Shown: positions 7,984 through 42,960, numbered from the stretch's first letter. The stretch: 64,000 bases of DNA from a virus (IMGVR_UViG_3300037391_000121); one strand, 5' to 3'. Notes: generated by a model from the sequence alone, not told the origin. Made by a program: numbers and translations.

Positions 7984-7984
7984 T

Positions 7985-10593: not shown

Positions 10594-10660
10594 GTTGAAA
10601 ACAAGCCTCAAAATGCTCTGAAAAACCTATCGATTTTGCCATTTTTATTGGTATAATAGC
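10594..10660 (+). promoter_or_regulatory. conserved phage promoter element, copy 1
   Basis: GTTGAAAACAAGCC...CCTATCGATTTTGCCATTTTTATTGGTATAATAG directly upstream of the ATG at 10664. Sits in the divergent region between the two strand blocks. Confidence 0.6.
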
Positions 10661-10663
10661 GAC

Positions 10664-10963
10664 ATGAATTGCTCACGCGCACATCACAGCCGCATGGTCG
10701 ATTACTCGGGCATCGTTGACGGCGAACGCAAGCTGCACCGTGCCCTCTTCCTGTTTGTCCTCGGCATCAACGGTCGCCGCAAGAATCCCGTGACCAAAAA
10801 GCAAATCCTGAACTGGTTCCACGGCACGCCCGAAAGCATGGTCGTTGCCGCCATCAACACCCTCTGTGGCGACACCATCATTCATGAGAACGGCAAGTTC
10901 CGCGTGCTTACCTTCCGCGACCATTCCGAAGCCCGCAAATCTCAGGTGGTCGCCAATGGATAA
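10664..10963 (+). CDS. hypothetical protein, 99 aa (first gene after promoter copy 1)
   Basis: ORF immediately downstream of the promoter element. Confidence 0.5.
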   Translation: MNCSRAHHSRMVDYSGIVDGERKLHRALFLFVLGINGRRKNPVTKKQILNWFHGTPESMVVAAINTLCGDTIIHENGKFRVLTFRDHSEARKSQVVANG

Positions 10964-11312
10964 CGTCATCTTAGATGTCATTCGAGCGATTCCTCAGCAG
11001 GCTCAGCGGCAGTATGGCACCGACGAGCAGCTTCGCCTAGCGATGGCGGCTGCCAACAAGCTTGGCCTGTACGACGCCGCCGACGTGATCCGCAGGCTGG
11101 CGGGGGACGACGAACTGGCGAACGCGGCGGAACGGCACGCGGGGCATGTGTGCACTTCCCCATGTGAGCCGTGTTGCGAGAAAGACCCCGAATACGACAT
11201 GGAGTTGCACGCGACTCAGCCGAAGAAGGATTGGCCGACTGTGAAGGCCGAAGCTAAGCTACGCGAGGATTGGCGTGACCGCAGGGCAGCACGAGATTTC
11301 CAGAGAGACTGA
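10956..11312 (+). CDS. hypothetical protein
   Basis: ATGGATAA start/stop overlap with the upstream gene. The tracked ORF 10845 start lies inside the previous gene. Confidence 0.45.
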   Translation: MDNVILDVIRAIPQQAQRQYGTDEQLRLAMAAANKLGLYDAADVIRRLAGDDELANAAERHAGHVCTSPCEPCCEKDPEYDMELHATQPKKDWPTVKAEAKLREDWRDRRAARDFQRD

Positions 11313-11333
11313 TAAAATCAAAGGGAGGTATTT

Positions 11334-11684
11334 ATGGCGCGAATTTGCTCAGTTCCAGCAGAAGTTGGTCCTCAACCCAAATTCCATGATTGCGACGGTG
11401 ACTTCAAAAAGTACACCACCGCGACCGACAAGTGGATCAAAACGGTCGTCGAGTACGCCAAGAAGAACGGCTCCGGCGAACTCGCAGGCGAGATCGTTCG
11501 CTTCCACGTTGCTGACGGCTACGCTCAATATGTGGTATTCTCGTCCAAGCCACTGCAACTGATTCACCTGCCTGTCTACGATGCTTGGCATTTCCAGTAC
11601 GCCAACCGTCTGACGGTCAAGGACATCAAGGAAGAAGTTCGGCGCAACAAGTCACTCAAGGCGATGTTTGCCTCAAAGGGGTAG
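11334..11684 (+). CDS. hypothetical protein, 116 aa
   Basis: AAGGGAGG SD before the ATG. Confidence 0.5.
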   Translation: MARICSVPAEVGPQPKFHDCDGDFKKYTTATDKWIKTVVEYAKKNGSGELAGEIVRFHVADGYAQYVVFSSKPLQLIHLPVYDAWHFQYANRLTVKDIKEEVRRNKSLKAMFASKG

Positions 11685-11686
11685 TA

Positions 11687-11854
11687 ATGGCGACCGATTA
11701 TCCACAATGCAAGGGCGGCAACGGAAGAAGCTGCTCTCAAGAAGCGACCGTGGGCTGCCAGCAATGCGGCAAGGACATTTGTCCAGACCATATCGGGCCT
11801 GAACAAGCGGATGACCCAACGGCCATAGTTTGCACAGATTGCGGGAGGGAATAA
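11687..11854 (+). CDS. small Cys-rich protein (zinc-ribbon-like)
   Basis: MATDYPQCKGG..CQQCGKDICPDH..CTDCG; start at the internal Met of ORF 11585. Confidence 0.4.
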   Translation: MATDYPQCKGGNGRSCSQEATVGCQQCGKDICPDHIGPEQADDPTAIVCTDCGRE

Positions 11855-12096
11855 TGGCAACCGAAACCATAACCATCTTCACGCCGTCCGAGATCATGCT
11901 GGCGGCTCTTCTGGGGAAGACGTTCCGCCCCGAGTCGGTGTTGGACATCATCCGTAGCCTGAGCGATCTGGGGATCACCGAGCATCCTTACGATGCTGTT
12001 TGCGTCGAGAAGGTGCACGAACGGCTGCAACGGTACGGCTACAACGCCAACGAAGCAAACCAAGTAGTTTGGGCACTCAGGGAGCGTGCGAAATAA
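11854..12096 (+). CDS. hypothetical protein
   Basis: GGAGGGAATA then ATG at 11854; ATGG-type overlap with the upstream stop. Confidence 0.45.
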   Translation: MATETITIFTPSEIMLAALLGKTFRPESVLDIIRSLSDLGITEHPYDAVCVEKVHERLQRYGYNANEANQVVWALRERAK

Positions 12097-12097
12097 T

Positions 12098-12322
12098 ATG
12101 CCGAGAATCTACGATTCAGCCAGCGACCCACTAGACTTCTGCAAGCGTTGCTTCCCCGGCGAGAAGACCGCCGAGGCACGCTACGGCAACGTCGCCAAGA
12201 CGGGCAACGGCCCTGACGGGCGGGGCAACTGCTTCGGCTACAACGAAGATCACCCACCTTACGAGGACACCGATTACAAGTGCGAAACCTGTAAGCGGAA
12301 CCTCGGTGAAAAGGACAACTAA
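12098..12322 (+). CDS. small Cys-containing protein
   Basis: Internal Met (MPRIYD) of ORF 12086 directly after the upstream stop. Confidence 0.4.
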   Translation: MPRIYDSASDPLDFCKRCFPGEKTAEARYGNVAKTGNGPDGRGNCFGYNEDHPPYEDTDYKCETCKRNLGEKDN

Positions 12323-12324
12323 TC

Positions 12325-12696
12325 ATGAACTTAGACAGCGTTCGTGTTCAATTCCAATCGCAGAACCCGCACAACACTCTGTTCCTGAAAGTGTGGGCCG
12401 ACGCCAACAATGAGCCGACCGAAATGTACGCGGCTCTGAACAAGCTTGGCTTCACGCAGGACGAAGTTCCGCCTGCCCCGCCGATCCCCGCCGAGTTCTG
12501 TTACGCGGCTGGTTACGCCAAGGGGGACAAGACCCTGATTATTGAGCAGACTTTCGTGAAGGGCGGCGAAGGTTTGTTCGGCGGCTGGACGCCCGAAGAG
12601 AAAAAGGCGAACGTGCCTGCGGTTCGCGGTGCGCTCCGCAAGTTCGGTTTCGTCCGTATCGATCACCGCAAACTCAGACTTGAGGACATGCTATAA
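12325..12696 (+). CDS. hypothetical protein, 123 aa
   Basis: ORF tightly spaced after the previous stop. Confidence 0.45.
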   Translation: MNLDSVRVQFQSQNPHNTLFLKVWADANNEPTEMYAALNKLGFTQDEVPPAPPIPAEFCYAAGYAKGDKTLIIEQTFVKGGEGLFGGWTPEEKKANVPAVRGALRKFGFVRIDHRKLRLEDML

Positions 12697-12722
12697 TCGT
12701 GGTAGGATGGTGAGGAGCAAAT

Positions 12723-13634
12723 ATGCGAAGAGGCAGCAATCCCGTATTTATCCATGTCGCCGCTGATGGGCTGATTCTTGCCCCAGACAAACGGAACCGC
12801 GAGCAGAGCGCCGTCCTTGACCTTGACCCAACCACCCGCACCCTTGCCGTCAATCTGGGTGCCGACTACTGTGCGGAGCACGAGTGGGGCATCAAGAAAT
12901 TGTATGAGGCTTTCGGCGTCAAGCACGAGATCGGCACCTATGGCATCAAGAAACGCAAGATCACCCGAGTGCCCAAATCCCTTGTCTGGGTGAAGTTCAT
13001 TGACGGGCGGCAAGGCTTCGCGTACCGAAACTTCTGGTTCAAGTCAGCGGAAGTGAGTCTCGTTGACGACAGCGATCTCAAGTCGTATGAGGTATACGAC
13101 CGCGAGAAGCGCAAGATGAAAGCCAACCCCGTCCAGTTGTGCTGTGCGTGGAGCGACGACGATTTCGCCTGCGTATCCTCCGACCCCACCGATATCAAAT
13201 ACCTCCGTGAGATTTTCGACCAGTTCCAGAAGAAGAACATCATCTTCACGTTCTCGAACGCCCTCCCCGCCTTTGAGAACCCGGGGCTCATCATCGCCAT
13301 CGCGAATCGAATGCCGAAGGAAGTCGCCGACATGCTCGCGAAGGCCGACAAGGAATCGCACGAGATCGAGAAATTCGTGGTAAAGAGCAAGGTTCGTGAA
13401 CTGCTCAAGGAAAAGGGCAAGGGGTATTTCGCTCTGTCGCCGAAGCGTTGGGAGGACGGCTCGATCAAGTTCTGGCTGAACCCTTACGACCAGCACAAGG
13501 TCAACTACGGCTGGTTCACGCTGGAGCAAGTCCGCCAGTGGGCGGATGACAAAGGGCCGATCCCGATGTCTCCCGCTCAGGTGATCGATTACCATGAACG
13601 GATGTCTGGCAAGAAAGTGAGGGCTATCCAATGA
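12723..13634 (+). CDS. hypothetical protein, 303 aa
   Basis: Long ORF; GGATGGTGAGGAG then ATG. Confidence 0.5.
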   Translation: MRRGSNPVFIHVAADGLILAPDKRNREQSAVLDLDPTTRTLAVNLGADYCAEHEWGIKKLYEAFGVKHEIGTYGIKKRKITRVPKSLVWVKFIDGRQGFAYRNFWFKSAEVSLVDDSDLKSYEVYDREKRKMKANPVQLCCAWSDDDFACVSSDPTDIKYLREIFDQFQKKNIIFTFSNALPAFENPGLIIAIANRMPKEVADMLAKADKESHEIEKFVVKSKVRELLKEKGKGYFALSPKRWEDGSIKFWLNPYDQHKVNYGWFTLEQVRQWADDKGPIPMSPAQVIDYHERMSGKKVRAIQ

Positions 13635-14086
13635 TAATCACCATCTTGGCGTACAAAGCGGAGTCCGAGGATGTCTGTAGGGGTTGCCGTGTGGCATCCT
13701 ATGGTTCGGATTTCAAGTGGAAGTCGTCCATGGATCGAGGAGAGATCGAAGAGTTCCTCGCGGGGCTCATGTTCGACAACAAGCATCTCGACACGAACGA
13801 GGGCGGGTACGAAATCACTTTCCTTTTCAACGGCGAAGAATACAACGATGTCGATCAAATCGCTTGGGAGATGGATGCTCTCAAGAAAGAGCTAACGCTG
13901 GAAGCTACGGCGCTCTACATCGTCAAAGAGAATGATTTCCAGCGGGCGGAAGCTGAATCCAAGAAGCGAGCCGCCGACAAGCAAAAGAAGGACACTGAGG
14001 AGCGCGAGCGTCAGCAGTTGGCTCAGCTTCAAGCCAAGTACGCTCCGAGAGCGATGGCACCTAATGAGGATTACAACGGTCAATGA
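13631..14086 (+). CDS. hypothetical protein with charged C-terminal coiled-coil-like tail
   Basis: ATGA overlap with the upstream gene. Confidence 0.45.
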   Translation: MIITILAYKAESEDVCRGCRVASYGSDFKWKSSMDRGEIEEFLAGLMFDNKHLDTNEGGYEITFLFNGEEYNDVDQIAWEMDALKKELTLEATALYIVKENDFQRAEAESKKRAADKQKKDTEERERQQLAQLQAKYAPRAMAPNEDYNGQ

Positions 14087-14286
14087 GCCGAACGTACAGC
14101 CAACGCACGTGTCGCTGCGGTAAGAAAATCAGTGCCGCAGGGCTGCCGTGGTACAATCACATGATGGGACACGTCCGTCGTGGAGAGGCGACCGTTACGC
14201 GGACGCTCTACGACTTTCTCCAGCCAGAACACATTGAATTCACATGGATCAAAGGGGTCAAATGCCAGCCAAACAAATCCCGCTAG
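14083..14286 (+). CDS. small protein, 67 aa
   Basis: ATGA overlap; CxC..H..H pattern. Confidence 0.4.
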   Translation: MSRTYSQRTCRCGKKISAAGLPWYNHMMGHVRRGEATVTRTLYDFLQPEHIEFTWIKGVKCQPNKSR

Positions 14287-14564
14287 TCAATGAGCTTCTC
14301 GCACTTACGGAGAGGCCCTACGATGAGTACAACACGGTTCTGACCGAAGTCATGACCCGCCTGCCGCTCGACGTGCAGGTGCAGACGTTCCAGCAGGTCT
14401 TAGGGGAAGAGCTTCCCCTGACCACCGCCCGCCGCGCCTATCGCACCGCCATTCGGATAGCAATGGGGCAGGAAGATGTCCACCGTGAGTACCAGCCACA
14501 CGGCCTGCCAAGAAAAATAATTTCAAAAAACAGTTGCCAAAATCGTAAAACTTCCGTATTGTAA
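14262..14564 (+). CDS. hypothetical protein
   Basis: Internal Met (MPAKQ) preceded by AAAGGGG; alternative start at 14244. Confidence 0.35.
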   Translation: MPAKQIPLVNELLALTERPYDEYNTVLTEVMTRLPLDVQVQTFQQVLGEELPLTTARRAYRTAIRIAMGQEDVHREYQPHGLPRKIISKNSCQNRKTSVL

Positions 14565-14621
14565 CTACAGAGAAGCTTTACGGTCGCCCGCAAGGGCTCC
14601 AAAACAATTTCAGAACCTCAC

Positions 14622-14707
14622 GATGGTGTTAGGTTGACGGTTACTTCATTCAACTGAATTCGCCAATGGCGAACTGGGGCTTGCCCCTCTCTGTCTCCGC
14701 TTGTTCC
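14622..14707 (+). ncRNA. degenerate Y-RNA-like element (copy 0)
   Basis: GATGGTGTTAGGTTGACGGTTACTTCA ... TCCGCTTGTTCC resembles the conserved 5' and 3' arms of the better copies. Internal hairpins TTCGCC-AATG-GCGAA and GGGGC-TTG-CCCC. Confidence 0.35.
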
Positions 14708-14710
14708 TCG

Positions 14711-14880
14711 TGGGTTCAATTTGCAAAAGGAGTTGCCCGGGATCATACTGCCGCCTTCGGGCGGGTGTCCCTGATACGTGCAATATTCCTTTCGACGGGT
14801 GGGAAACGTGCCCCGCAGACTGCCAGCCTCGGCTGGGTGTACCTGCGAGGTCCACCCACCGTCGTCCGATTTTAATGTGC
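14711..14880 (+). ncRNA. structured non-coding region (possible additional small RNA or processing signals)
   Basis: Hairpins CCGCC-TTCG-GGCGG, long-range stem CGACGGGTGG...CCACCGTCG, T-loop-like GTGGGTTCAATT, ends GATTTTA just before the next RNA. Confidence 0.3.
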
Positions 14881-14881
14881 T

Positions 14882-15004
14882 GTGGTGTTAGGAAACGGAT
14901 ACTTCTCCTGAAAAGAGGGGGACGTGGGTTCGAGTCCCACTGCCCGTCGCGAGACGGGTATAGCTCAGTGGCAGAGCACCAACCGTGCCGTTCCGCTTGT
15001 TCCC
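14882..15004 (+). ncRNA. YrlA-like Y RNA with circularly permuted tRNA-like module (copy 1)
   Basis: 5' arm GTGGTGTTAGGAAACGGATACTTCT; T-arm GTGGG-TTCGAGT-CCCAC (14924-14940); 8-bp hairpin CCCGTC-GCGA-GACGGG; D-arm TAGCTCAGTGGCAGAGCA; 3' arm CCGTTCCGCTTGTTCCC. Directly upstream of rsr. Confidence 0.6.
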
Positions 15005-15156
15005 AGCACAGTTTTCGCGAAGGTGCCCTTGAGAGGGGCTTAAAGAAGCGTGAGCCGCTTCGCCATCGGGGTAAGGCCGCTACCAAGGGAGGTAGCGGGG
15101 CAACGTGGGCACGCACTCCCACCCTTATCATTGATATTTTGAAGGAGGATACCAGC

Positions 15157-16671
15157 ATGGCATCCGTGAACGCAGTAACTCGACGTATTGGTCCGCAGGT
15201 GCACACCGCACCCGGAGCCACGGCAGCACGCATCAACAAGGCGCTTCAGCTTCAGCGTCTCTTGAACGCTTGCATGTTGTGGGAAGACAATTTCTACATC
15301 GACGGCGAGACCGTCGCTGGCTTGATCCAGAAGCTCGTCCACGAGACTTCCGCAGAGAAGTGTGCGGAACTCGCGGTCAAGGCTCGTAATGAGCAGAAGC
15401 TTCGCCACGCACCGTTGCTCGTAGTGCGTGAGATGGCTCGTGCGTCCGCCGACCACAAGGCACTCGTGGCGGATACGCTGTTCGCCGTCATTCAGCGTCC
15501 TGATGAGATCGCGGAGTTTCTCGCGATTTACTGGAAGGACGGGAAGCAGCCGATCTCCGCTCAGGTGAAGAAGGGCCTCGCTCGCGTGTACAACAAGTTC
15601 TCCGAGTACCAGCTTGCGAAGTGGAACAAGGACAAGGACATCAAGCTGCGTGACGTGGCTTTCTTGACGCACGCAAAGCCGAAGGACAAGGCTCAGGGTC
15701 TTCTGTTGGCGCAATTGGTCAACAAGGATCGCGTGCCCGTGGCAACCCGTGGCGGAAAGTACGACAAGAAGAAGGCCGCTGGGTTCCCGGTCGCGAAGAC
15801 CTACAAGACGCTGGCGAAGAATTTCGTCGGTCTGGCAACGCCCGACACTTGGGAGGTTGCACTCTCTGGTGGGGCAGGCAAGAAGGAGACGTTCACCCGT
15901 ATGCTCGAAGAGGGCACGCTGGGTGCAATCGCCGTCCTGAAGAACCTCCGCAACATGACTCAGGCGGGCGTGTCGAACAGCGTCATCAAGAGCGGTTTGG
16001 CAACCATGAAGACTGAGCGTGTGCTCCCGTTCCGTTTCATCACGGCGGCGAAATATGCCCCGGGATTTGAGTCGGAACTTGAGCAGGCGATGTTCCGTTG
16101 CCTCGCGGGTGCCCCGAAGTTGCTGGGTCGCACTGGTGTTGTGATCGACGTTTCTGGGTCCATGAACGGCAAAGTCTCGGGTAAGTCTGAGCTTGGCCGT
16201 ATCGATGCTGCGGCCTGCATCGCAATGTTGCTTCGTGAGGTTTGCGAGGACGTTGTGATCTACTGCACGGCAGGTAACGACGGCACCCGTATCCACAAGA
16301 CGGAGATGATCCCGTCTCGTCGTGGGTTTGCGTTGCGTGATCTCATCAACCAGTCCGCAGGTCGTTTGGGCGGCGGCGGTATCTTCTTGACGCAGATGAT
16401 GGACTACGTTCGCAAGCATGAGCAGGGCGACTTCGAGCGTATGATCGTCATCACGGATGAGCAGGACTGTGAGCGTGATCCCGCTCGTGCGGCATCGCGT
16501 GCAAACACCTTTGGTGAGCACAACTACCTCATAAACATTGCCAATGAGAAGAACGGAATTGGCTACCGCAAGTGGCATCACATTGATGGATTCAGCGAAG
16601 CCGTCGTCACCTACATCTTCGCGGAAGAGGGCCAGTCCTTCGATTCCGCCGATGAAGACTCACTTAACTAA
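15157..16671 (+). CDS. rsr: Ro60-like protein (Rsr): TROVE domain plus vWA domain
   Basis: ATG after GAAGGAGGA. vWA MIDAS motif VIDVSGSMNG. Size (504 aa) and N-terminal region consistent with a TROVE domain. The tracked ORF start at 14701 is an over-extension across the ncRNA cluster. Confidence 0.75.
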   Translation: MASVNAVTRRIGPQVHTAPGATAARINKALQLQRLLNACMLWEDNFYIDGETVAGLIQKLVHETSAEKCAELAVKARNEQKLRHAPLLVVREMARASADHKALVADTLFAVIQRPDEIAEFLAIYWKDGKQPISAQVKKGLARVYNKFSEYQLAKWNKDKDIKLRDVAFLTHAKPKDKAQGLLLAQLVNKDRVPVATRGGKYDKKKAAGFPVAKTYKTLAKNFVGLATPDTWEVALSGGAGKKETFTRMLEEGTLGAIAVLKNLRNMTQAGVSNSVIKSGLATMKTERVLPFRFITAAKYAPGFESELEQAMFRCLAGAPKLLGRTGVVIDVSGSMNGKVSGKSELGRIDAAACIAMLLREVCEDVVIYCTAGNDGTRIHKTEMIPSRRGFALRDLINQSAGRLGGGGIFLTQMMDYVRKHEQGDFERMIVITDEQDCERDPARAASRANTFGEHNYLINIANEKNGIGYRKWHHIDGFSEAVVTYIFAEEGQSFDSADEDSLN

Positions 16672-18300: not shown

Positions 18301-18301
18301 C

Positions 18302-18699: not shown

Positions 18700-18748
18700 C
18701 GGTCCACCGAGTACCCCTTGCATTTTCCCGCAAACGTGGTATTATTTC
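18700..18748 (+). promoter_or_regulatory. promoter-family copy (CCTTGCATTTTCCCGCAAACGTGGTATTAT) placed for a leaderless transcript
   Basis: Extended -10 TGGTATTAT ends about 7 nt before the ATG at 18752. Upstream hairpin TCGGTGGA-13nt-TCCACCGA preceded by TATAAAAT. Confidence 0.4.
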
Positions 18749-18751
18749 TTT

Positions 18752-18934
18752 ATGCCATTCAAAGCCATAAAACGTAAGATCAAAAAAGACGGGAAAGTCA
18801 CTACAATCAAAATTTTCAGGGACGGTGCGGATGGCACAGGTGTAAGGCTGCCGTTTAGCTGTGGGTTCTGTAACGAGGTTCACTTTCGGTCCCGCCAGCA
18901 GCGCACCGACCATACGCAGCATTGTCCCAAGTAA
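18752..18934 (+). CDS. small zinc-finger-like protein, 60 aa
   Basis: MPFKAIKRK..CGFCNEVHF..HTQHC. Start at the internal Met because the upstream part of ORF 18602 carries the promoter element. Confidence 0.4.
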   Translation: MPFKAIKRKIKKDGKVTTIKIFRDGADGTGVRLPFSCGFCNEVHFRSRQQRTDHTQHCPK

Positions 18935-18948
18935 GCTTGTGTGGGTGG

Positions 18949-19020
18949 TGATTGGAAACGGGTACTTCTTCCTTTAACGAAAGATGCCGAAAGGCTACCC
19001 CGTCCCGCTTGTTCCCCCAC
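18949..19020 (+). ncRNA. YrlB-like short Y RNA without a tRNA-like module (copy 3)
   Basis: GTGGTGATTGGAAACGGGTACTTCT ... hairpin CCTTT..AAAGG ... CCGTCCCGCTTGTTCCC. Confidence 0.5.
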
Positions 19021-19037
19021 CATGTTTCGCCGAGTGG

Positions 19038-19161
19038 TGTTAGGAAACGGGTACTTCTCTCGCCTTGGGAGAGTAGCTCAGCGGTAGAGCGCCTGACTTG
19101 AAATCAGGAGGCCGTTGGTTCGACTCCAACCTCAACTACTCCGTCCCGCTTGTTCCCTCGG
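19038..19161 (+). ncRNA. YrlA-like Y RNA with colinear tRNA-like module (copy 2)
   Basis: 5' arm GTGGTGTTAGGAAACGGGTACTTCT; hairpin CTCTC-GCCTTGG-GAGAG; D-arm TAGCTCAGCGGTAGAGCG; anticodon-like arm CCTGA-CTTGAAA-TCAGG; T-arm GTTGG-TTCGACT-CCAAC; 3' arm CCGTCCCGCTTGTTCCC. The acceptor stem does not pair and there is no CCA. Confidence 0.6.
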
Positions 19162-19180
19162 CATATTTTCTGGAGCTTCA

Positions 19181-20362: not shown

Positions 20363-20567
20363 ATACCCGAAGATGTACCTCTACTACCACGACAATCAGC
20401 AGTGGATTCTCTACAAAGAGAAGCCGCCGAAGGACACCTATTGTGGGGAGCCCGATCATGATGCGTGCATCCTCGCTGAGGGGCAGGACTACGACGGCGA
20501 GGGCTACGCTCCGCACCTAGTCATCGATCTGTGCAAGGCATTGGGGATTAAGGTGGAATCCATCTAA
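20337..20567 (+). CDS. hypothetical protein, 76 aa
   Basis: ORF, ATGG-type overlap downstream. Confidence 0.4.
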   Translation: MDFKKLIAKYPKMYLYYHDNQQWILYKEKPPKDTYCGEPDHDACILAEGQDYDGEGYAPHLVIDLCKALGIKVESI

Positions 20568-21283
20568 TGGATGTCCTGTTCCAAGAGAAAGTCCCCCGAG
20601 GCAAGAAGAGTGGCCCGAGGCAATGGTACATGAATTGTGCGGGGTGGTTCGCCCATCCCGAGGAAGACAGAGAAGCGTTCAACGATCTTCCCGCATGGCG
20701 GCAGCGGGAGATTTTAGAGTGTCGTCGTATTTTCCGCGAAGTTCCCGGCGTTCAAGCTTACGAGATCATTGACCCAAGTACGGGAATCCCGTACCCCAAC
20801 CAGAAGCTCGCCGTCAACTATTATCAGAAAACCCCCGAGATCGCCCTAGCTCCCATACCCCCTGCCGCCAAGTATTTCATTCCAAACGGCATTTCCCTAG
20901 CCGAATTCCGCCGCCGCAAGGTAGAATGTAGTGAGGGTTCACTACTCGAAGCTCTCATAGGGCACGTCACCCGCGACCGACTTGTTCAGGTCGGGGCAAC
21001 TGAAGACGGTAAGGCGTTGGCTGGTAGGAAGCCATTGGATGGCATCCTCGCTTTCGTCTGGCGATGCGCTCAGTATCACAGCGGACAGGCCGCAGGTATC
21101 CCAGTGACAGCATTCTGGGACTTGGACGATGGCATCAGCCGCCTGACGGGTGTACGTGGCGGGGCAAGTGTGGAAGTGGTCGGGTTTCTTGAGCAGAAGG
21201 CTCATGAGCTTGTGGAGATTACAGGCGGCGAGAAGAACGTTGCCGAGCTTCGCTGGGCTCGCATCATGGGGAGACTTGATTGA
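20567..21283 (+). CDS. hypothetical protein, 238 aa
   Basis: Long ORF in the co-directional block. Confidence 0.45.
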   Translation: MDVLFQEKVPRGKKSGPRQWYMNCAGWFAHPEEDREAFNDLPAWRQREILECRRIFREVPGVQAYEIIDPSTGIPYPNQKLAVNYYQKTPEIALAPIPPAAKYFIPNGISLAEFRRRKVECSEGSLLEALIGHVTRDRLVQVGATEDGKALAGRKPLDGILAFVWRCAQYHSGQAAGIPVTAFWDLDDGISRLTGVRGGASVEVVGFLEQKAHELVEITGGEKNVAELRWARIMGRLD

Positions 21284-22560: not shown

Positions 22561-22811
22561 AATTCTTCGTTGAGAACCAGCAATGGGTTATCGCCACAAT
22601 CGTTTGGCTCGGTATGATGGGCATTATTTGCCTCTTTGCGGAGGCTAACAGCCAGAGAGCTACCAAAGTGAAACGCATCGTCGGCTGCGCCGTAGTCACC
22701 CTGTGGATATGGGGAGTGACGATTTCTGGGCTGTATGCCAACCTGCAACCGCCGCCTATTCAACAACATATCAGCATCCCCGCCGATTACCACCCATGCG
22801 GGAAAACCTAG
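22557..22811 (+). CDS. small membrane protein, 84 aa
   Basis: Two hydrophobic helices. Confidence 0.45.
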   Translation: MKFFVENQQWVIATIVWLGMMGIICLFAEANSQRATKVKRIVGCAVVTLWIWGVTISGLYANLQPPPIQQHISIPADYHPCGKT

Positions 22812-22843
22812 CGATTTTCCCATTTTTCTTGGTATAATAGGGC
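22807..22843 (+). promoter_or_regulatory. conserved promoter element, copy 2
   Basis: CCTAGCGATTTTCCCATTTTTCTTGGTATAATAGGGC then GGAGGA then ATG at 22857. Confidence 0.6.
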
Positions 22844-22856
22844 TGGAGGATCACCC

Positions 22857-23201
22857 ATGTACACTGGAAAAATCATCCACGACGGCGTAATCAAAGACGT
22901 TGACCGCATCGTCACCAACGGCAAAGGCAAACAGCTTAATCTGGAAGCCAGCCTCAAGGTGGTGAACCATTCCCCCACAGGCTTTTGCTGGGGCTACGGC
23001 GGCAGCGGCCCTGCTCAGCTTGCTCTCGCGATCTTGCTCGATCATTTCAACGGCGACAAGGAACGCGCTCTGGGGCTGTATCAAGATTTCAAGTTCAGGG
23101 TCATTGCTCGGCTGCCGATGGACGAGGATTTCGTCCTGACCGACCAACAGATCGAGAGCGTCATCAGCGAGATCGACATCGAGCGGATGAAAATCGCGTA
23201 A
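22857..23201 (+). CDS. hypothetical protein, 114 aa (conserved HSPTGFCWGYGGSGPAQLALAIL motif)
   Basis: First gene after promoter copy 2. Confidence 0.5.
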   Translation: MYTGKIIHDGVIKDVDRIVTNGKGKQLNLEASLKVVNHSPTGFCWGYGGSGPAQLALAILLDHFNGDKERALGLYQDFKFRVIARLPMDEDFVLTDQQIESVISEIDIERMKIA

Positions 23202-28391: not shown

Positions 28392-28845
28392 GTGCTTCAC
28401 CCTGCTCAGCACGCTTTATCCAGTTGTGATTTGCACAGAGCAGTTGGTAGTTCTTACCCCCGTCCGCTAGAACTTTTTTCAAGTAGGTTTCTTGTGCCAG
28501 ACCTCTTAACTCTTTACAACCGCCTCCGAATTTATGGTCAATCTGGAGAGCCCTCGGGTCTGTCCATCCGCAACCCGGCCAAGCACATTGATTCCCCAGC
28601 ATTGCGAACACGGCTTCCTTACGCCGCGCTCGTGTCTGTCTGCTGTAGCCGTTATATCGTTCTCGATTGTTTTTCTTGGTTGCGGCTGTTACGGCAATGC
28701 ATTTTTCACGGTGGTTTTTGTAATGCTCGGCGCTTTTCTGCCGCTGTATTTGTAAACAGGTTTCACAGCAGGTTTTTCCGCCTGCTGTTGGATTCGGGCA
28801 ACGTGCACATTTCATGAAATAACCCCCTCTATAATAGGGGTTCAT
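28372..28845 (-). mobile_element. free-standing HNH homing endonuclease, opposite strand, inserted between the RNA ligase and CCA genes
   Basis: CAWPGCGW..LQIDH..LLCANHNW HNH motif plus N-terminal Cys cluster. The only minus-strand gene in the plus block. Overlaps the ligase 3' end by 20 nt. Confidence 0.65.
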
Positions 28846-28886
28846 AGCATAAAGATTTGTAAGTAGTTACAAAATAAGGGGTTATT

Positions 28887-28924
28887 CCTAAAGTTTTCGG
28901 GCGTTTCCTTGGTATAATAGGGGT
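28887..28924 (+). promoter_or_regulatory. conserved promoter element, copy 3
   Basis: CCTAAAGTTTTCGGGCGTTTCCTTGGTATAATAGGGGT then ATG at 28927. Confidence 0.55.
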
Positions 28925-28926
28925 AT

Positions 28927-29184
28927 ATGAGACGAAGCTTTCTGGATTCGATGCTGTCATTCGTGGGTCGGTGTACCCACGACCGTTATTCATTTCCCCA
29001 GACGATCAAGGCAGGCAAGGACAAGGGCAAGACCACGGTCTCCTGCTTGGACTGCGGCAAGACGCTGCCGTATGATTGGGCGGGGTTGGGCGCGGAGGAA
29101 GAAATCAAACCCCCCAAGATGACGGCACCGAGGGTTATCGTGATCGAGAAGACGGGAACGTATCTCATAGGAGAACAAAAGTGA
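28927..29184 (+). CDS. small zinc-finger protein, 85 aa
   Basis: CTHDRY..CLDCGKTLPYDW. Confidence 0.45.
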   Translation: MRRSFLDSMLSFVGRCTHDRYSFPQTIKAGKDKGKTTVSCLDCGKTLPYDWAGLGAEEEIKPPKMTAPRVIVIEKTGTYLIGEQK

Positions 29185-34184: not shown

Positions 34185-34415
34185 ATGTCTGTACATCTGA
34201 TGGAGCCGCCGCTCACCGTGGCGAAGCTAAAAGAGATTCCCACGATACTTGAGGTTTACGACTGCAACGACAGTCGCTCGATTCCGCCCGGAATCCTCAT
34301 GATCTTTGTGGATGGGCCTGAACTCAACGACCTGATTCTAGAGGTACTCCCTGTCGGCGTCTGTGCGGAGATCATCACTTGGTCATTCGACCCAAAAATC
34401 GTCAATGAAAACTAA
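34185..34415 (+). CDS. hypothetical protein
   Basis: GAGGCGAGGAACC then ATG; internal Met of ORF 34143. Confidence 0.4.
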   Translation: MSVHLMEPPLTVAKLKEIPTILEVYDCNDSRSIPPGILMIFVDGPELNDLILEVLPVGVCAEIITWSFDPKIVNEN

Positions 34416-34462
34416 CCAAAATTCGATTTCCTTAGGTAGAATGTCCCTGTGGGGGACATCTC

Positions 34463-34627
34463 ATGCCTTACAAGCTAGACACAGGAGCGTTGCTGACGGG
34501 AGCCTTCCTCTTTGGGTTGGTTTGCCTCCCCGTTGTCGCAATCGTTCTCGCGGTTCGAGCAGACCGTCCCAAGGATCACCCCAAAACATTCGAGGAAATA
34601 TACCCAGACGAGCACCGCTTCATCTGA
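34463..34627 (+). CDS. small single-pass membrane protein, 54 aa; not in the ORF track
   Basis: Own translation: MPYKLDTGALLTGAFLFGLVCLPVVAIVLAVRADRPKDHPKTFEEIYPDEHRFI. Preceded by TAGGTAGAAT (-10-like) and hairpin ATGTCCC-TGTG-GGGACAT. Confidence 0.35.
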   Translation: MPYKLDTGALLTGAFLFGLVCLPVVAIVLAVRADRPKDHPKTFEEIYPDEHRFI

Positions 34628-35510: not shown

Positions 35511-35763
35511 AGAGATCACCATCACGCCTGACGGCAAAGCCAAGGTGAGCACGATCATGAGCCTCGGCGATGGTCAGGCGTTCTTTCGCTCAATGCTCGG
35601 GACATGTGGCACAATCTGCGGCAAGGCTGGGCACGAGGACAACGAGAAGCCCCACGTCCGCAACGACTCGTGTTGGAACTGGAAGCCCGGAGACTACGTT
35701 TATCTGGGCGAAGTACGCGATACCAAGATCACCTTCAAGCCCGAGACCGAAGACCTGCTGTAA
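35503..35763 (+). CDS. hypothetical protein
   Basis: GTG start overlapping the upstream stop; in frame with ORF 35314. Confidence 0.35.
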   Translation: MSKEITITPDGKAKVSTIMSLGDGQAFFRSMLGTCGTICGKAGHEDNEKPHVRNDSCWNWKPGDYVYLGEVRDTKITFKPETEDLL

Positions 35764-35835
35764 CCCTTTGAAAACAAGCCAAATATAGTCCACATTTCCT
35801 ATCGATTCCCGCTTCTTTTTGGGTATAATAGGCAC
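35764..35835 (+). promoter_or_regulatory. conserved promoter element, copy 4 (long form)
   Basis: TTTGAAAACAAGCCAAATATAG...CCTATCGATTCCCGCTTCTTTTTGGGTATAATAGGCAC then ATG at 35836. Confidence 0.6.
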
Positions 35836-36165
35836 ATGAGCGATCAGACGGTAGCCAAAACAATCCTCGAACAGCTTGGCGGACGCAAGTTTATCGTCAT
35901 GACTGGCGCGAAGAATTTCGTCGGCTCCAGCAACAGCCTGTCCTTCAAGCTGCCCGGTGGCGGCGGCTTCTGCAATGACGGCATCAATTACGTCAACATC
36001 GAACTGACATCTGCCGACGACTATACCGTGACCTTCCACCGCGTGCGTGGTATGCGGAACACACTCGTCGCGAAGCACGAGGGCATTTACTTCGATCAAC
36101 TGCGAGAGTCTTTCACCAACGCAACTGGCTTGGCGACTTCACTCGGCACGATGGGGGCGAAATGA
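35836..36165 (+). CDS. hypothetical protein, 109 aa
   Basis: First gene after promoter copy 4. Confidence 0.5.
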   Translation: MSDQTVAKTILEQLGGRKFIVMTGAKNFVGSSNSLSFKLPGGGGFCNDGINYVNIELTSADDYTVTFHRVRGMRNTLVAKHEGIYFDQLRESFTNATGLATSLGTMGAK

Positions 36166-38460: not shown

Positions 38461-38463
38461 GCC

Positions 38464-38868: not shown

Positions 38869-38870
38869 TT

Positions 38871-39242: not shown

Positions 39243-39439
39243 GTTTTGATGACCGCACTATGCGGCTGGATGATAGCCCACGGGATCGGGTGCGACAAGT
39301 TCATCCCAAGTGCGTGTGCACCGCCGTCTACTGGAATGGACGCCGGGAGGGTTTTGTTGTCTCCCTGAACGGGAAGACTATTGCGTCGGCGACCCAAGCG
39401 TATCAGGCGTGGCTGCTGGCGGAAGCGAAGCTACTATGA
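39239..39439 (+). CDS. hypothetical protein
   Basis: ATGA overlap; internal Met of ORF 39215. Confidence 0.35.
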   Translation: MSFDDRTMRLDDSPRDRVRQVHPKCVCTAVYWNGRREGFVVSLNGKTIASATQAYQAWLLAEAKLL

Positions 39440-39606
39440 CTCATTCCTGCGCCAAATCGATCTACTTCGACCGCTGCACGATGTGCGGACGGTGCCCAGA
39501 GTGTTGCCCGGGGCATAAACGACCCGACAATTACTACGGCATGACCCGCCAGCAAGGTCTTGACTGGAAGAAGCAGGAACGCCAGAAACCCGCGAGGATA
39601 AACTAG
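39436..39606 (+). CDS. small Cys-rich protein, 56 aa
   Basis: CTMCGRCPECCPGH; ATGA overlap. Confidence 0.35.
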   Translation: MTHSCAKSIYFDRCTMCGRCPECCPGHKRPDNYYGMTRQQGLDWKKQERQKPARIN

Positions 39607-40631
39607 TGCCCTACATTCAATACGTCAACAAAAAGATCGGTGCAGACAAGATGGCGATCATCGATGTCTGCAATGAGATCATCGCGTCCTATCAGGCTCA
39701 GGGCTTTCGTTTGACGTTGCGGCAGCTTTACTACCGACTCGTGGCGGGCGACCTGTTTCCCGACGACCGTAAGTGGGTCTGGACGGGCAGCAAGTGGATT
39801 CGTCACCCCGATGGCACCAAGAACGCGGAGCCGAATTACAAATTCCTCGGCGACGTGGTTTCTGACGGTCGGCTGTTGGGGTTGGTGGATTGGGACGCTA
39901 TTGAAGACCGCACCCGTAGCCTCAGCACCAACTCGCATTGGGCCGAGCCAGTCAACATCGTGGAAAGTGCTCGCGATTCATACCTCAATGATCTGTGGCG
40001 TTGGCAGCCAGTTCGTCCCGAGGTCTGGGTGGAGAAGGACGCTTTGGAAGGGGTCGTACAAGCCGCTTGCAAGCCGCTTGACGTGCCTTTCTTCTCCTGC
40101 CGTGGCTACACCAGCCAATCCGCCATGTGGGAGGCAGGGCAGCGTTTGCTCGGCTACCGCCAGAACACCGTGGAATACAAAGGCAAGCACGTTCGCCGCG
40201 AGAACAAACCGTTTCGTCAACGTGTGCTGATCTTCCATCTTGGCGATCACGATCCTTCGGGCATCGACATGACGCGAGATATTCAGGATCGGCTGGAAAT
40301 GTTCACTGGCATTCCAGTTGAGGTTCGCCGTCTCGCTTTGAACATGGATCAGGTTCAGAAGTACAGTCCGCCGCCGAACCCCGCCAAGCAAACGGATTCG
40401 CGATTCAAGCAGTACATGGAGGAGCACGGCGACGAGAGTTGGGAGCTTGATGCTCTGGAGCCGAATGTGTTAATCTCCCTCATACAGGCGAACATCAAGT
40501 CTGTGATGGATGCCCCTCGGTACGAGGAAGCCCGCCTGATTCAGGAGCACGGGCGGAAAGAACTGACCAGTATCGCCGAGAAGTATGCCGTGGCAGTCAA
40601 GGCGACGGCTGGAAAACCGGAGAAGAAATAA
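39606..40631 (+). CDS. Spo11/TopoVI-A-like protein (CAP/winged-helix with candidate catalytic Tyr, plus Toprim)
   Basis: GTG start after GAGGA. LTLRQLYYRLV matches the TxRxxYY CAP motif; VWVEKDALEG matches the Toprim glutamate; IFHLGDHDPSGIDM matches the DxD Toprim metal site. Confidence 0.55.
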   Translation: MPYIQYVNKKIGADKMAIIDVCNEIIASYQAQGFRLTLRQLYYRLVAGDLFPDDRKWVWTGSKWIRHPDGTKNAEPNYKFLGDVVSDGRLLGLVDWDAIEDRTRSLSTNSHWAEPVNIVESARDSYLNDLWRWQPVRPEVWVEKDALEGVVQAACKPLDVPFFSCRGYTSQSAMWEAGQRLLGYRQNTVEYKGKHVRRENKPFRQRVLIFHLGDHDPSGIDMTRDIQDRLEMFTGIPVEVRRLALNMDQVQKYSPPPNPAKQTDSRFKQYMEEHGDESWELDALEPNVLISLIQANIKSVMDAPRYEEARLIQEHGRKELTSIAEKYAVAVKATAGKPEKK

Positions 40632-40819
40632 TGCCAAAGAAGAGACCTGCTATCGAATATCCCAAGGATGTCATCGTAGAGGCCAAGCTTCGCCGTATGC
40701 GTCCTGACGACTACCTTCGCCAGATGGCGGAATGCGGCATGGCCGACCAGCGGATGGACGAGATCGACCGCAAGAAGCTGGACGAAATGCAGGAGCCGGT
40801 AGCCGAGTCCGCGTTGTGA
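40631..40819 (+). CDS. hypothetical protein, 62 aa
   Basis: ATGC-type overlap. Confidence 0.4.
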   Translation: MPKKRPAIEYPKDVIVEAKLRRMRPDDYLRQMAECGMADQRMDEIDRKKLDEMQEPVAESAL

Positions 40820-40998
40820 GCAGCTACGGGTTCCAGCCAAGCGGCAATCCAACGAGCGGCAAATACCTTCTTCGGCTGTTTGGCACCATTGCCAGCATCC
40901 TTTGGCTAGTGGGCGGAATTTTTGACGGGCATTGGAGCCCCGGCCCGTTGGTTCTCGCCGCTATCCTGTTCGGGATCGCTTGGGTGTGCAAATCCTAA
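40816..40998 (+). CDS. small membrane protein
   Basis: GTGA overlap; LFGTIASILWLVGGIF..LAAILFGIAWVC. Confidence 0.35.
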   Translation: MSSYGFQPSGNPTSGKYLLRLFGTIASILWLVGGIFDGHWSPGPLVLAAILFGIAWVCKS

Positions 40999-41002
40999 TA
41001 AG

Positions 41003-41072
41003 TTGTTGAAAACAAACCAAATATAGCCCCAAAATCCTATCGATTTCGCTCATTTTTTGGGTATAATAGGGC
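41003..41072 (+). promoter_or_regulatory. conserved promoter element, copy 5 (long form)
   Basis: GTTGAAAACAAACCAAATATAG...CCTATCGATTTCGCTCATTTTTTGGGTATAATAGGGC then ATG at 41073. Confidence 0.6.
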
Positions 41073-41384
41073 ATGAGCAGATTACGATTGAACGTGAAAG
41101 CGATGGCAGCCCGCAGCGAAGCCCGCACCGCCGCCATTGTCGTTGGCAGCACCTACTTCCTGTCCAGCTTCTACGATAAGGACGGCTGTCTCGTGGAGGT
41201 TCTGAGCAAGTCCACGAAGAAGAACAGCGCGGGCTGGCCGAGCACCGTCGAAGTGAAGGTCATTTGTCCTCTGGGCGACGACGCTGGCAAACCGTACTAC
41301 GCGGTCGGCACCATCCACACCTGCAACGCGACCAACCTCTACGATAAGCGTGATGACGCCTCGCACACGCGGAGGGTGTTCTAA
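41073..41384 (+). CDS. hypothetical protein, 103 aa
   Basis: First gene after promoter copy 5. Confidence 0.5.
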   Translation: MSRLRLNVKAMAARSEARTAAIVVGSTYFLSSFYDKDGCLVEVLSKSTKKNSAGWPSTVEVKVICPLGDDAGKPYYAVGTIHTCNATNLYDKRDDASHTRRVF

Positions 41385-41563
41385 TGGATCAGCCAACGAT
41401 TATGACCGCCGATCACCGCCAGATGCTCGCCTACTGGCACGTCAACGAGCCAGACGCGGGCGTCGAGTGGCTGGCGAATAACATGATTCGCAAGTTCAAC
41501 CTGAACAAAAACACCGCATGGATTCTGGCTACACGGTTCATCAACGAACGGAGGGGCTAATGA
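41384..41563 (+). CDS. hypothetical protein, 59 aa
   Basis: ATGG-type overlap. Confidence 0.35.
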
Positions 41564-41709
41564 GCGCAGCTTGGGGTACAGCAGAATCGCTTGAATCGGT
41601 GCCACGATTGCAGCGTATTTGGCGCATGTGGTCCTACGTTTCTGTGGGTTCGATCTTCTACATGCTGGTACGTTTTTACAACTAACAAGCACATTAGAGA
41701 GGGGCAACT

Positions 41710-42045
41710 ATGGAATCCACCAATCGCCATCAGATTCGCGTAAACGGTTTGGTTATCAATCACATTGATGTGCGGCACGCGCTCGTAGACGGCGTACCGT
41801 GCGGTGAATGGCAGGTCGCCATCGAAGACCCCATGATCGGCTGGATGACCCTAGACGACAACGATAACCTGTGGGATAATGATCTACCGAAGTTCGTGTT
41901 GGAGGTTCGTGCCAACCCGTGGGTCTCTGTTATCGACATGCGGGACGGCAATGAATTACCAGTTCTCGGCTGGCGGCAGGTGTCGGTCGCCCAACTGCTT
42001 GAACTTTTAGAGTCTACAGGGGTCTTAGTTAGGGAGACCCGCTAG
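41710..42045 (+). CDS. hypothetical protein, 111 aa
   Basis: GAGAGGGGCAACT then ATG. Confidence 0.45.
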   Translation: MESTNRHQIRVNGLVINHIDVRHALVDGVPCGEWQVAIEDPMIGWMTLDDNDNLWDNDLPKFVLEVRANPWVSVIDMRDGNELPVLGWRQVSVAQLLELLESTGVLVRETR

Positions 42046-42051
42046 GGCATC

Positions 42052-42321
42052 ATGGGATTTTTCGACGACTACAACGAAGAGGAAGTTCGCCCACGCCGTA
42101 AGTCTCGACGGGGGAGCGCCGACGACAGTGCCGACGACAGGCTCGATTGGCGAGACCTTGGCGAAGGGATCGACGAACCCGAAGAGCCTACCGAGGAACC
42201 CGACGAGGAGTCCGAAGAGGACGAGGACACGATCCAAGAACTTGAGATCGATGACCACGGCAGGATGCGTCGTTCGAGCAGGGACGAGATTGACCCCGAC
42301 TTTTGGAACGAAGACGAATAA
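42052..42321 (+). CDS. acidic low-complexity protein, 89 aa
   Basis: D/E/S-rich. Confidence 0.4.
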   Translation: MGFFDDYNEEEVRPRRKSRRGSADDSADDRLDWRDLGEGIDEPEEPTEEPDEESEEDEDTIQELEIDDHGRMRRSSRDEIDPDFWNEDE

Positions 42322-42329
42322 TCCAAACT

Positions 42330-42659
42330 ATGAGGCAAGCGATTAGAGTAGCGTTACTCTGCGTTGTGATTGGGTTTGCACTCGGATACCTCGGTCTGTC
42401 TGTTCACGGCATCATGGCGGAAAAGGCTCAGGCGTCGAAACCTTCCGCACTATTTAAGAACCCCGACATTTACATAGGGGGCAGGCCGTCGCCCTTCACA
42501 TTTGGTGGCCCTCCATTAGGTAACGATCCCCCGTTTTTTGATCCATTCACTCAAAGCCCATCGCGAGCAATGCCCCGCCCACTGCCGCCGCCTCCGCAGG
42601 ACGCTCCCTGTATCGGCACTGCCGATCCCTGCCAGCAACGAAGGGTCATCAGGATATGA
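42330..42659 (+). CDS. membrane-anchored Pro-rich protein
   Basis: N-terminal TM helix then Pro-rich tail. Confidence 0.4.
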   Translation: MRQAIRVALLCVVIGFALGYLGLSVHGIMAEKAQASKPSALFKNPDIYIGGRPSPFTFGGPPLGNDPPFFDPFTQSPSRAMPRPLPPPPQDAPCIGTADPCQQRRVIRI

Positions 42660-42946
42660 CCGTGACCCCACTTGAGGAATCCCGCGAAGTCTACGCTGCG
42701 ATCCCCGCTTCACTCAGGGAGCCCGCCTTAGCCCTCCTGACCGCATTGCTGGAGCCTGTGTCGCCTGAGATACGTGCTGACTACACCAAAGACCCCATCA
42801 ACTGGTGGAAGCATGGACACTTCCATTTCGGCCTCGCCGTCCGCAATCAACTTCGTCGCAAGGGATTTGACGCCGCCTACTTCGGCGTCAGCAACTTGGA
42901 CGACATCTACGTTTTTCTCGTCGAAGAAGCCCTCAAACTCCGCTAA
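42656..42946 (+). CDS. hypothetical protein, 96 aa
   Basis: ATGA overlap. Confidence 0.4.
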   Translation: MTVTPLEESREVYAAIPASLREPALALLTALLEPVSPEIRADYTKDPINWWKHGHFHFGLAVRNQLRRKGFDAAYFGVSNLDDIYVFLVEEALKLR

Positions 42947-42950
42947 ATGT

Positions 42951-42960
42951 GGTATTATAT
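42951..42960 (+). promoter_or_regulatory. weaker promoter-family copy (TGGTATTATAT)
   Basis: Extended -10 about 20 nt before GGAGGCAGAT then the ATG at 42984. Confidence 0.35.

Follow-up and report, generated by a model that had tools for sequence, protein, structure and literature searches.

Conserved cassettes with an extended -10 element and a phage-specific box at the -35 position form a predicted promoter family in large soil phages probably infecting Acidobacteria

The DNA analysed here, called the window in the following, comprises 64,000 nucleotides (nt) of the virus IMGVR_UViG_3300037391_000121. It is phage DNA with a G+C content of 55% and belongs to a genome of at least 117 kb, whose relatives reach approximately 460 kb. 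A block of fibre-like genes occupies the minus strand (354-10432), and from 10664 onward a long plus-strand block carries small genes of unassigned function together with RNA-repair and metabolic genes, including those for a Ro/TROVE protein, PNKP, an RNA ligase, a CCA-adding enzyme, an SNF2 helicase, a peptide deformylase and IscU. The subject of this work is a cassette of about 75 bp that occurs in this plus block in five strong copies and joins a conserved 10-bp box to a -10 hexamer. A preliminary description of the window had proposed these repeats to be a family of intergenic promoters, and their arrangement agrees with that proposal: the cassettes lie on the coding strand directly before open reading frames (ORFs), with a perfect -10 and a fixed geometry, in 36 gene contexts when the relatives are included.

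The repeats do form a family, with five strong members in the window that all lie on one strand and have a fixed geometry. At two or fewer mismatches, TTGGTATAATAGG gave five matches, all on the plus strand, against 0.39 expected. A repeat search of the window returned the same five sites as a 38-nt family, accompanied by one chance match of 61% at 52226, as well as a three-copy family of 65 nt (10596, 35768 and 41006). When all 111 -10-like hexamers of the window were scored for CCTATCGATT 16 nt upstream, the scores were bimodal: the TATAAT hexamers at 10652, 22833, 28913, 35824 and 41062 had 0, 1, 3, 0 and 0 mismatches, respectively, whereas the remaining 106 hexamers had at least 4 each. 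The pattern CTA[TG]C-N20-TANNNT was matched five times on the plus strand and not at all on the minus strand, and the other gaps within 14-26 gave 0-1 matches each. The core shared by the five copies is CCTA(T/G/A)(C/A)G(A/T)TT, exactly 16 nt and TATAAT, always on the plus strand, and 11 of the 12 TGGTATAAT-like sites of the window are found on the coding strand. The preliminary description had listed seven near-identical or short copies; five of these share the box, the 16 nt and TATAAT, whereas the forms placed at 18700 and 42951 are without the box, and several coordinates had to be shifted by a few bases (the boxes begin at 35798 and 41036). It had also assumed a variable spacer of 11-14 nt, which was not found, the distance between CCTATCGATT and GGTATAAT being fixed at 14 nt. 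The additional upstream block that it reported for three copies was recovered as TTGAAAACAA at 10595, 35768 and 41006.

Cassette 1 (10595-10666; this and the other cassettes of the window are on the plus strand) lies in the divergent region that opens the plus block. It consists of TTGAAAACAA (10595-10604), the box CCTATCGATT (10626-10635), a T-tract with TGG (10643-10651) and TATAAT (10652-10657), and is followed by an ATG at 10664, 6 nt past the -10. The gene that begins there (10664-10963, plus strand) encodes 99 amino acids (aa) with a winged-helix-like predicted fold. Cassette 2 (22807-22859) is without the distal box; its box CCTAGCGATT (22807-22816) contains the TAG (22809-22811) that is the stop codon of the upstream ORF, and its TATAAT (22833-22838) is followed by an 18-nt leader with the ribosome-binding site GGAGG (22845-22849) and by the ATG at 22857 of a DUF6166 gene, a layout that is kept in the L030/L049 ortholog. 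Cassette 3 (28857-28929) is degenerate, with TTGTAAGTAG at 28857-28866, the box CCTAAAGTTT at 28887-28896, TATAAT at 28913-28918 and an ATG at 28927, 8 nt past the -10; the variant box is also kept in L030/L049. A second TATAATAGGGG is located 84 nt upstream of this cassette in the palindrome CCCCTCTATAATAGGGG (28824-28840), which could be a hairpin or a second -10. Cassette 4 (35768-35838) has TTGAAAACAA at 35768-35777, the box at 35798-35807, TATAAT at 35824-35829 and an ATG at 35836, 6 nt past the -10, and is preceded by the stop codon TAA at 35761-35763. Cassette 5 (41006-41075) is organised alike, with TTGAAAACAA at 41006-41015, the box at 41036-41045, TATAAT at 41062-41067, an ATG at 41073, 5 nt past the -10, and an upstream TAA at 40996-40998.

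A weaker variant member (34411-34465, plus strand) combines the box ACTAACCAAA (34411-34420) with TAGAAT (34437-34442) at the same box-to-hexamer geometry, followed by a GGGGG ribosome-binding site and an ATG at 34463, and was kept in six related loci (L030, L033, L043, L017 and L016 among them). By its geometry, the site at 20896-20927 on the plus strand, with the box CCTAGCCGAA (20896-20905) and TAGAAT (20922-20927) within the predicted ORF 20567-21283, is a putative further variant. Two plus-strand sites with the GTGGTATTAT form were rejected as members, as they are without the box. The first (18718-18754) has TATTAT at 18740-18745 and is a candidate for a canonical-type promoter (TTGCAT, 16 nt, TGG TATTAT), with an ATG at 18752 six nt past the hexamer. 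The second (42950-42986), with TGG TATTAT (hexamer at 42953-42958), is an extended -10 candidate that has a 25-nt leader with GGAGG and an ATG at 42984, and it is kept in L043. In the same genome, another strong member, with the box TCTATCGTTT (L134 18315), is located approximately 5.5 kb to the left of the window and in minus-strand orientation relative to it; it precedes a DUF6011 gene, whose ATG lies 6 nt past TATAAT. The six strong copies are confined to the segment from this site to 41 kb; no strong copies were found from 43 to 74 kb, and at L130 position 9202, about 4 kb to the right of the window, there is a weaker TAGAAT-type variant.

Pattern scans found relatives of the cassette in IMG/VR (14 loci) and in bog or peat metagenomes (27 loci); a relaxed rescan of these loci added members, and 36 distinct downstream gene contexts remained after orthologous duplicates had been removed. 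With the A of the usual ATG numbered as +1, the consensus begins near -75 with a TAA or TAG stop codon of the upstream gene, immediately before the distal box; as judged from the sequence, this stop codon gives the 5' boundary of the functional cassette. Three A-tracts follow, approximately 10-11 bp apart and centred near -63, -52 and -41: the distal TTGAAAACAA at -68 to -59, AAATAWA at -55 to -49 and AAAWT at -43 to -39. Next come the 10-bp box CCTA(T/G)CG(A/T)TT at -38 to -29, a T-rich tract at -20 to -16, G-14, G-13, TATAAT at -12 to -7, A-6 and G-5. In all 36 contexts C-37, T-36, A-35, T-30, T-29, G-14, G-13 and TATAAT are invariant, and G-5 is present in 35; TATAAT was required by the search and the box partly so, which builds in part of the invariance of both, while neither the distal box nor the A-tracts nor the ATG position was required. 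Between the distal box and the CCTA box the spacing takes discrete values, 30-31 nt in 21 contexts, 20 nt in five and 40 nt in one; as these differ by a turn of the helix and so keep its phase, they are compatible with A-tracts that are phased as in an UP-like or curved-DNA element. Among five orthologs of cassette 1, the distal box and the region from -38 to -1 are invariant, whereas the intervening and upstream sequence varies. A pattern of distal box plus CCTA box that did not require the -10 gave nine matches, of which six were true cassettes, all with a -10, and three were chance matches in coding sequence. Compared with the window (35824-36165), the cassettes L033 5273 and L043 3878 have the distal box 10 nt nearer to the CCTA box, and gene gain or loss falls exactly at the cassette. 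Two members of L046, at 4651 on the minus and 4756 on the plus strand, stand back to back and divergent with overlapping upstream A-tract regions.

Several other explanations of the conserved parts were considered and discarded. A sigma32-type promoter, in which the distal box would be the -35 (CTTGAAA) and the -10 would be CCCCAT-like, fails because -48 to -44 is not conserved, and TTGAAA with TATAGT as a second sigma70 promoter fails on a spacer of just 10 nt. As to dyad symmetry of the box, the 6-bp ATCGAT alone is symmetric, and the arms of AAATC-N5-GATTT were not conserved by eye; nor was a match to the integration host factor (IHF) consensus seen by eye. An apparent excess of 23-24 nt spacings across the loci came from unrelated chance sites. 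Against cultured phages, blastn with the cassette gave chance matches only, and neither 20 kb of the window at near-identity nor a 755-aa fibre-like ORF at the protein level found a match. Of Tunturi_5, the sole cultured relative, 192 kb were examined and contained no cassette; its annotated sigma factor gp3 is without Pfam support, and no relative of gp3 was detected in IMG/VR.

The first ATG after TATAAT follows at 6 nt in 21 of the 36 contexts, at 5 nt in six, and at 4 nt and 8 nt in one each. An ATG at 4-6 nt is thus present in 28 contexts, against approximately 1.7 expected by chance, and in the window four of the five copies have their ATG 5-8 nt past TATAAT. Each of the 29 ATGs at 4-8 nt opens an ORF, with lengths of 48-569 codons (median 103); for comparison, 46% of all plus-strand ATGs in the window open ORFs of at least 45 codons. 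For gene 35836, the alignment to the PHROG 9437 profile begins at residue 5, in keeping with the ATG at 35836 as its start. In the orthologs of gene 10664, three of the five changed codons between ATG1 and Met11 are synonymous, and the public calls mostly begin at Met11 (89 aa), 30 nt past the probable leaderless start (10664-10693). The other contexts have leaders of 15-32 nt, with GGAGG-type ribosome-binding sites in those inspected (22833 of the window, L010, L028 and L049). Besides the four family members, only 2 of the window's 150 long plus-strand ORFs carry a good -10 at 5-8 nt from the first ATG, in a scan that is blind to the 18740 site, a further such case whose ATG is not the first in its ORF, and most other genes of the window have upstream sequences of the ribosome-binding-site type. 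This rarity suggests that leaderless expression belongs to the promoter class and not to the phage at large, and most transcripts from the cassettes should, judged by the ATG placement, be leaderless. As 9.7-19.4% of the genes of Acidobacteria are predicted to be leaderless (PMC3160421), leaderless phage mRNAs are plausible in the presumed host. In one group (L012 4153, L013 10905 and L046 274) the cassette is followed by the conserved TCTTTCAGGCTCTTCTATAGGGG with no ATG nearby, and these cassettes may drive a small RNA.

The host is probably an acidobacterium of the Terriglobia, as indicated by two phage proteins. The IscU of the phage is 78-90% identical to its best 80 matches in reference genomes, all but one of which are from Acidobacteriota, mostly Terriglobia, and include Acidobacteriaceae and Candidatus Sulfotelmatobacter. 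The SNF2 helicase, over 95% of its length, shares 56% identity with its counterpart in the Tunturiibacter phage Tunturi_5, a 309-kb jumbo myovirus that is among the first isolated viruses of Acidobacteriota (PMC11924767). The clade consists of large uncultivated soil phages that probably infect Acidobacteria. As a sample of probable-host DNA we used 251 kb of Terriglobia sequence around isc operons. TTGAC[AC]-N16-18-TA[ATG]AAT was found four times in this sample, never at control spacings and never in the window; CTA[TG]C-N20-TA[ATG]AAT was absent from the sample and present five times in the window, all of these being small numbers. Upstream regions of Terriglobia inspected by eye contained TTGACA-16-TAAAAT, TTGACC-18-TAGAAT and TTGCAA-18-TAGAAT. 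A pattern scan of 185,579 reference bacterial and archaeal genomes gave no match to the cassette. Together, these counts and the empty scan indicate that the box is not the -35 element of the host and bear out the earlier suggestion that it is phage-specific. A consensus promoter scan picked up a canonical -35 at none of the five cassettes. The -35 position holds ATCGAT (1 of 6 matches) with a 17-nt spacer, as the preliminary description had correctly given it, or TCGATT (3 of 6) with a 16-nt spacer.

It had further been proposed that the element partitions the plus block into operons, which the layout does not favour, as terminators between the units are absent. At 35824 and 41062, which have the distal box and an upstream plus-strand gene, the upstream stop codon precedes the distal box by 4-7 nt, and at 22833 it lies within the box itself, so that there is no space for an intervening hairpin. 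No terminators were found upstream of the cassettes, and terminator-like sites were not enriched (23 found against 21.4 expected, and 18 against 20.1). A hairpin is possible at copy 22833 alone (22800-22821); it is missing from the ortholog, and no hairpin is conserved. The tight stop codons and the lack of a terminator excess thus suggest that the cassettes add transcription within a co-oriented block and do not delimit separate units.

Other parts of the window also deserve mention. Between cassette 1 and the first gene on the minus strand, the non-coding region 10441-10560 hardly varies among five relatives; the promoter or other regulatory signals of the fibre-gene block may be located in it. 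The large fibre-like ORFs on the minus strand (354-9394) contain many internal direct repeats of 23-180 nt and an Ice-binding-like domain. At 14875-14948 ARAGORN calls a tRNA-like 'Phe gaa' that Rfam does not confirm as a tRNA; the call overlaps a weak match to YrlA (Y RNA-like; 14917-14980, 29.4 bits, E 0.002) and sits in the 5'-terminal part of the Ro/TROVE ORF (14701-16671). Its blocks of 26-33 nt are present in two further copies (18945-19027 and 19034-19168), which flank a true tRNA (19067-19138). Beside the genes for PNKP, RNA ligase and CCA-adding enzyme there is thus probably a phage Ro and Y-RNA module. Genes for Fe-S assembly proteins, IscU (58816-59226) and an IscA/HesB-like protein (57686-58009), are present as well, and the high identity of IscU to almost exclusively acidobacterial proteins among the best 80 matches suggests a fairly recent host-derived auxiliary gene.

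Starting from the observed anatomy of the cassettes, their conservation, their specificity for phage DNA and the placement of the ATG, we infer which polymerase would read them, where it would start, what would bind the box and when. Tentatively, and with a confidence that stays somewhat below even, we regard the cassettes as sigma70-type extended -10 promoters whose box at the -35 position is bound by a dedicated phage-specific factor. A bacterial holoenzyme with a sigma70-type (group 1) factor would open the promoter via the perfect -10 and the extended -10, the A-tracts would serve as an UP-like or curved-DNA element, and a canonical -35 would be dispensable. The transcript would begin with the A of the start codon or with a base adjacent to it, and the first gene of the unit would be translated from a leaderless mRNA. 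The box would occupy the place of sigma region 4, yet it differs from the host -35 sequence, and its reader may be a phage activator with a remodelled sigma region 4, as with MotA/AsiA in T4, or region 4 of a phage sigma factor. The result would be one co-regulated promoter class that could stay active during shut-off of the host -10/-35 promoters. In agreement with this, the -10, G-14, the G two bases past the hexamer and the spacing up to the presumed start are each of the kind that group 1 sigma holoenzymes read. This G is the discriminator contact of sigma region 1.2. As the box is non-palindromic, occurs in a single orientation at exact spacing and is kept in the TAGAAT variants, it fits a polymerase-associated contact. 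Extended -10 promoters do without the contact of sigma region 4 to the -35, and both AsiA/MotA of T4 and gp39 of P23-45 displace sigma region 4 while sparing such promoters; in T4, whose middle promoters are the closest precedent, AsiA remodels sigma region 4 and the box read by MotA replaces the -35 (PMC7403470).

Several points weigh against this interpretation. It is drawn from the sequence, with a predicted start site, and the host assignment is built on two protein similarities. T-15 of the classical TG motif is present in 10 of the 36 contexts, and 25 have a G there (mostly GGG); in the window three of the five copies have the full TGG. A Pfam search of the window ORFs of at least 55 aa up to approximately 46 kb found no homologs of sigma, RNA polymerase, MotA or AsiA, and tblastn with segments of E. 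coli sigma70 and beta-prime detected no sigma factor or RNA polymerase in the window and 486 kb of related loci, which are fragments of genomes. A perfect extended -10 with UP-like tracts could suffice with the host holoenzyme, the box then perhaps being a repression operator, and gene conversion among the cassettes as well as the pattern used in the search could raise the apparent conservation of the box. A contig from a public run was tried as a marker of the transcription start and discarded, since its end was not at the site.

The main rival, quite possible if on the doubtful side, is that the unmodified sigmaA holoenzyme of the host is enough, the cassettes then forming an immediate-early class like the T4 early promoters and the box being an operator for a later phage repressor or being kept mainly by recombination between cassettes. 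The cassettes do have all traits of a strong activator-independent promoter (perfect -10, G-14, G-5 and UP-like A-tracts), the extended -10 bypasses the contact of sigma region 4 with the -35 (PMC7403470), and the downstream genes are small and of unassigned function, as is typical of early regions. Moreover, cassette 1 opens the plus block, and its first gene has a winged-helix-like fold, so that the product of gene 10664 would, speculatively, be one candidate for the repressor; the same product is a speculative candidate for binding the cassettes whether a dedicated factor reads the box or the host enzyme acts alone. However, a non-palindromic box in one orientation and at exact spacing, in 36 of 36 contexts and in the TAGAAT variants, suits a polymerase-associated contact better than a dimeric repressor binding by itself, and the fold assignment of gene 10664 is weak: its AlphaFold model, with a mean predicted local distance difference test (pLDDT) score of 74, has an H-S-H-H-hairpin topology, and Foldseek returned winged-helix regulators at E values of at least 0.07. 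The cassettes may instead matter chiefly for evolution, as mobile regulatory modules similar to the PeSL (promoter early stem-loop) elements; the 40-75 bp of identity among the cassettes would then drive recombination by which genes of unassigned function are inserted, deleted and shuffled, promoter activity being secondary. PeSLs are conserved promoter modules of approximately 100 bp before orphan genes that mediate insertions and deletions (PMC2839356), the same cassette stands before at least 36 unrelated genes here, and in L033 and L043 gene 35836 is missing and a homolog of gene 36162 stands directly at the cassette. This is, however, a single example of insertion or deletion, and it is compatible with promoter function. 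The stem-loop terminator that defines PeSLs is lacking, and an invariant box and -10 next to variable spacers point to selection on function, not to plain homogenisation. We consider this explanation unlikely.

Reading by a phage multisubunit RNA polymerase, as for the early promoters of phiKZ and AR9, seems very unlikely. AR9 early promoters have the form AAATATATATTAT-N6-G(+1), in those of phiKZ a T-rich motif stands upstream of an extended -10-like box (PMC5312081, PMC8244752), and the clade includes very large genomes. However, no polymerase subunit was found in the window or the related loci or is annotated in about 190 kb of the Tunturi_5 record, the Tunturi_5 paper does not mention an RNA polymerase (PMC11924767), and the leaders of phiKZ and AR9 measure 26-491 nt, none being leaderless (PMC5312081, PMC8244752). 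The motif also fits the bacterial consensus, including G-14 and the discriminator G. That the cassettes have no promoter role and repeat by chance, or serve as another kind of site, for instance in packaging, in replication or as a protein-binding array, is hardly credible, even though the promoter role is itself deduced from sequence: the strand bias is strong, with the TGGTATAAT-like sites almost all on the coding strand (11 of 12), and the placement directly before ORFs, the perfect -10 geometry, the coupling to an ATG and the conservation in dozens of contigs speak against it as well. Returning to the dedicated phage factor, its wider form, in which large acidobacterial phages carry a sigma-appropriation-type system of their own, with the box CCTAKCGWTT read instead of the -35 by a phage protein or a phage sigma region 4 and with a regulon whose first genes are all leaderless, appears rather unlikely to us.

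Acidobacteria are among the most abundant soil bacteria, and little is known of their gene-expression signals or of how viruses take them over; the first isolates of acidobacterial viruses were described in 2025, in a paper that does not mention promoters (PMC11924767). If the sigma-appropriation reading were true, takeover of host transcription would be coupled to translation that is independent of ribosome-binding sites, and this would be the first case of the kind beyond T4-like phages; for viruses of Acidobacteria, a promoter logic would then have been described for the first time. The compact design, with its UP-like element, phage-specific box, extended -10 and predicted leaderless start, could become a genetic tool for Terriglobia. 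The cassettes correct gene starts that public callers miss, and the box offers a defined DNA target for finding a new transcription factor or sigma-remodelling system. We also suggest that the repeated cassettes help to shuffle genes in these large genomes.

Among known systems, the middle promoters of T4 have a good sigma70-type -10, often extended, and a phage-specific, non-palindromic box of approximately 9-10 bp at a fixed distance in place of the -35, and as a class lie among the genes of the early region (PMC7403470), all of which resembles the cassettes. The boxes themselves differ, CCTATCGATT here versus TGCTTtA, as do their centres, near -33.5 here versus -30 in T4, and no MotA/AsiA homolog was detected here in the ORFs searched (at least 55 aa, up to about 46 kb of the window). 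UP-like A-tracts and leaderless starts are not known as features of T4 middle promoters. By analogy, the box would qualify as a phage-specific replacement of the -35 at fixed spacing of the T4 type. With the PeSLs of RB49 and phi1 the cassettes share the repetition of highly conserved promoter modules of 75-100 bp with an AT-rich upstream part and the position directly before orphan genes (PMC2839356, PMC4122927); genes are gained or lost at PeSLs, and one such case, that of gene 35836, was seen at a cassette. PeSLs, however, own a canonical sigma70 -35/-10, a G/C-rich stem-loop terminator and leaders with ribosome-binding sites, whereas the cassettes are without a terminator, have a non-canonical -35 box and are predicted to be mostly leaderless.

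[quoted passage not shown] These promoters differ in being without a conserved box at the -35 position and without the distal TTGAAAACAA, and the hosts of these phages belong to another phylum. Sevostyanova et al. are said to have described, in 2007, leaderless middle and late transcripts in phiYS40. In leaderless genes of Actinobacteria, Deinococcus-Thermus and Acidobacteria, as in lambda PRM-cI, a TANNNT ends approximately 6 nt before the start codon, which is the 5' end of the mRNA (PMC3160421, PMC4007540); here, by contrast, the arrangement is confined to one phage promoter family. The early promoters read by the virion RNA polymerases of the jumbo phages phiKZ and AR9 are similar in their long, conserved, AT-rich -10-like motif, which is repeated over the early region and has its start about 6 nt downstream, and differ in depending on phage multisubunit RNA polymerases, of which none was found in the window or the 486 kb of related loci, and in their long leaders. 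Neither the motif strings nor the joint occurrence of a phage-specific box at the -35 position, A-tracts in phase, an extended -10 and a start codon placed at +1 was found described in the literature searched. The wider kind to which this combination belongs, phage promoters that bypass the host -35, is known.

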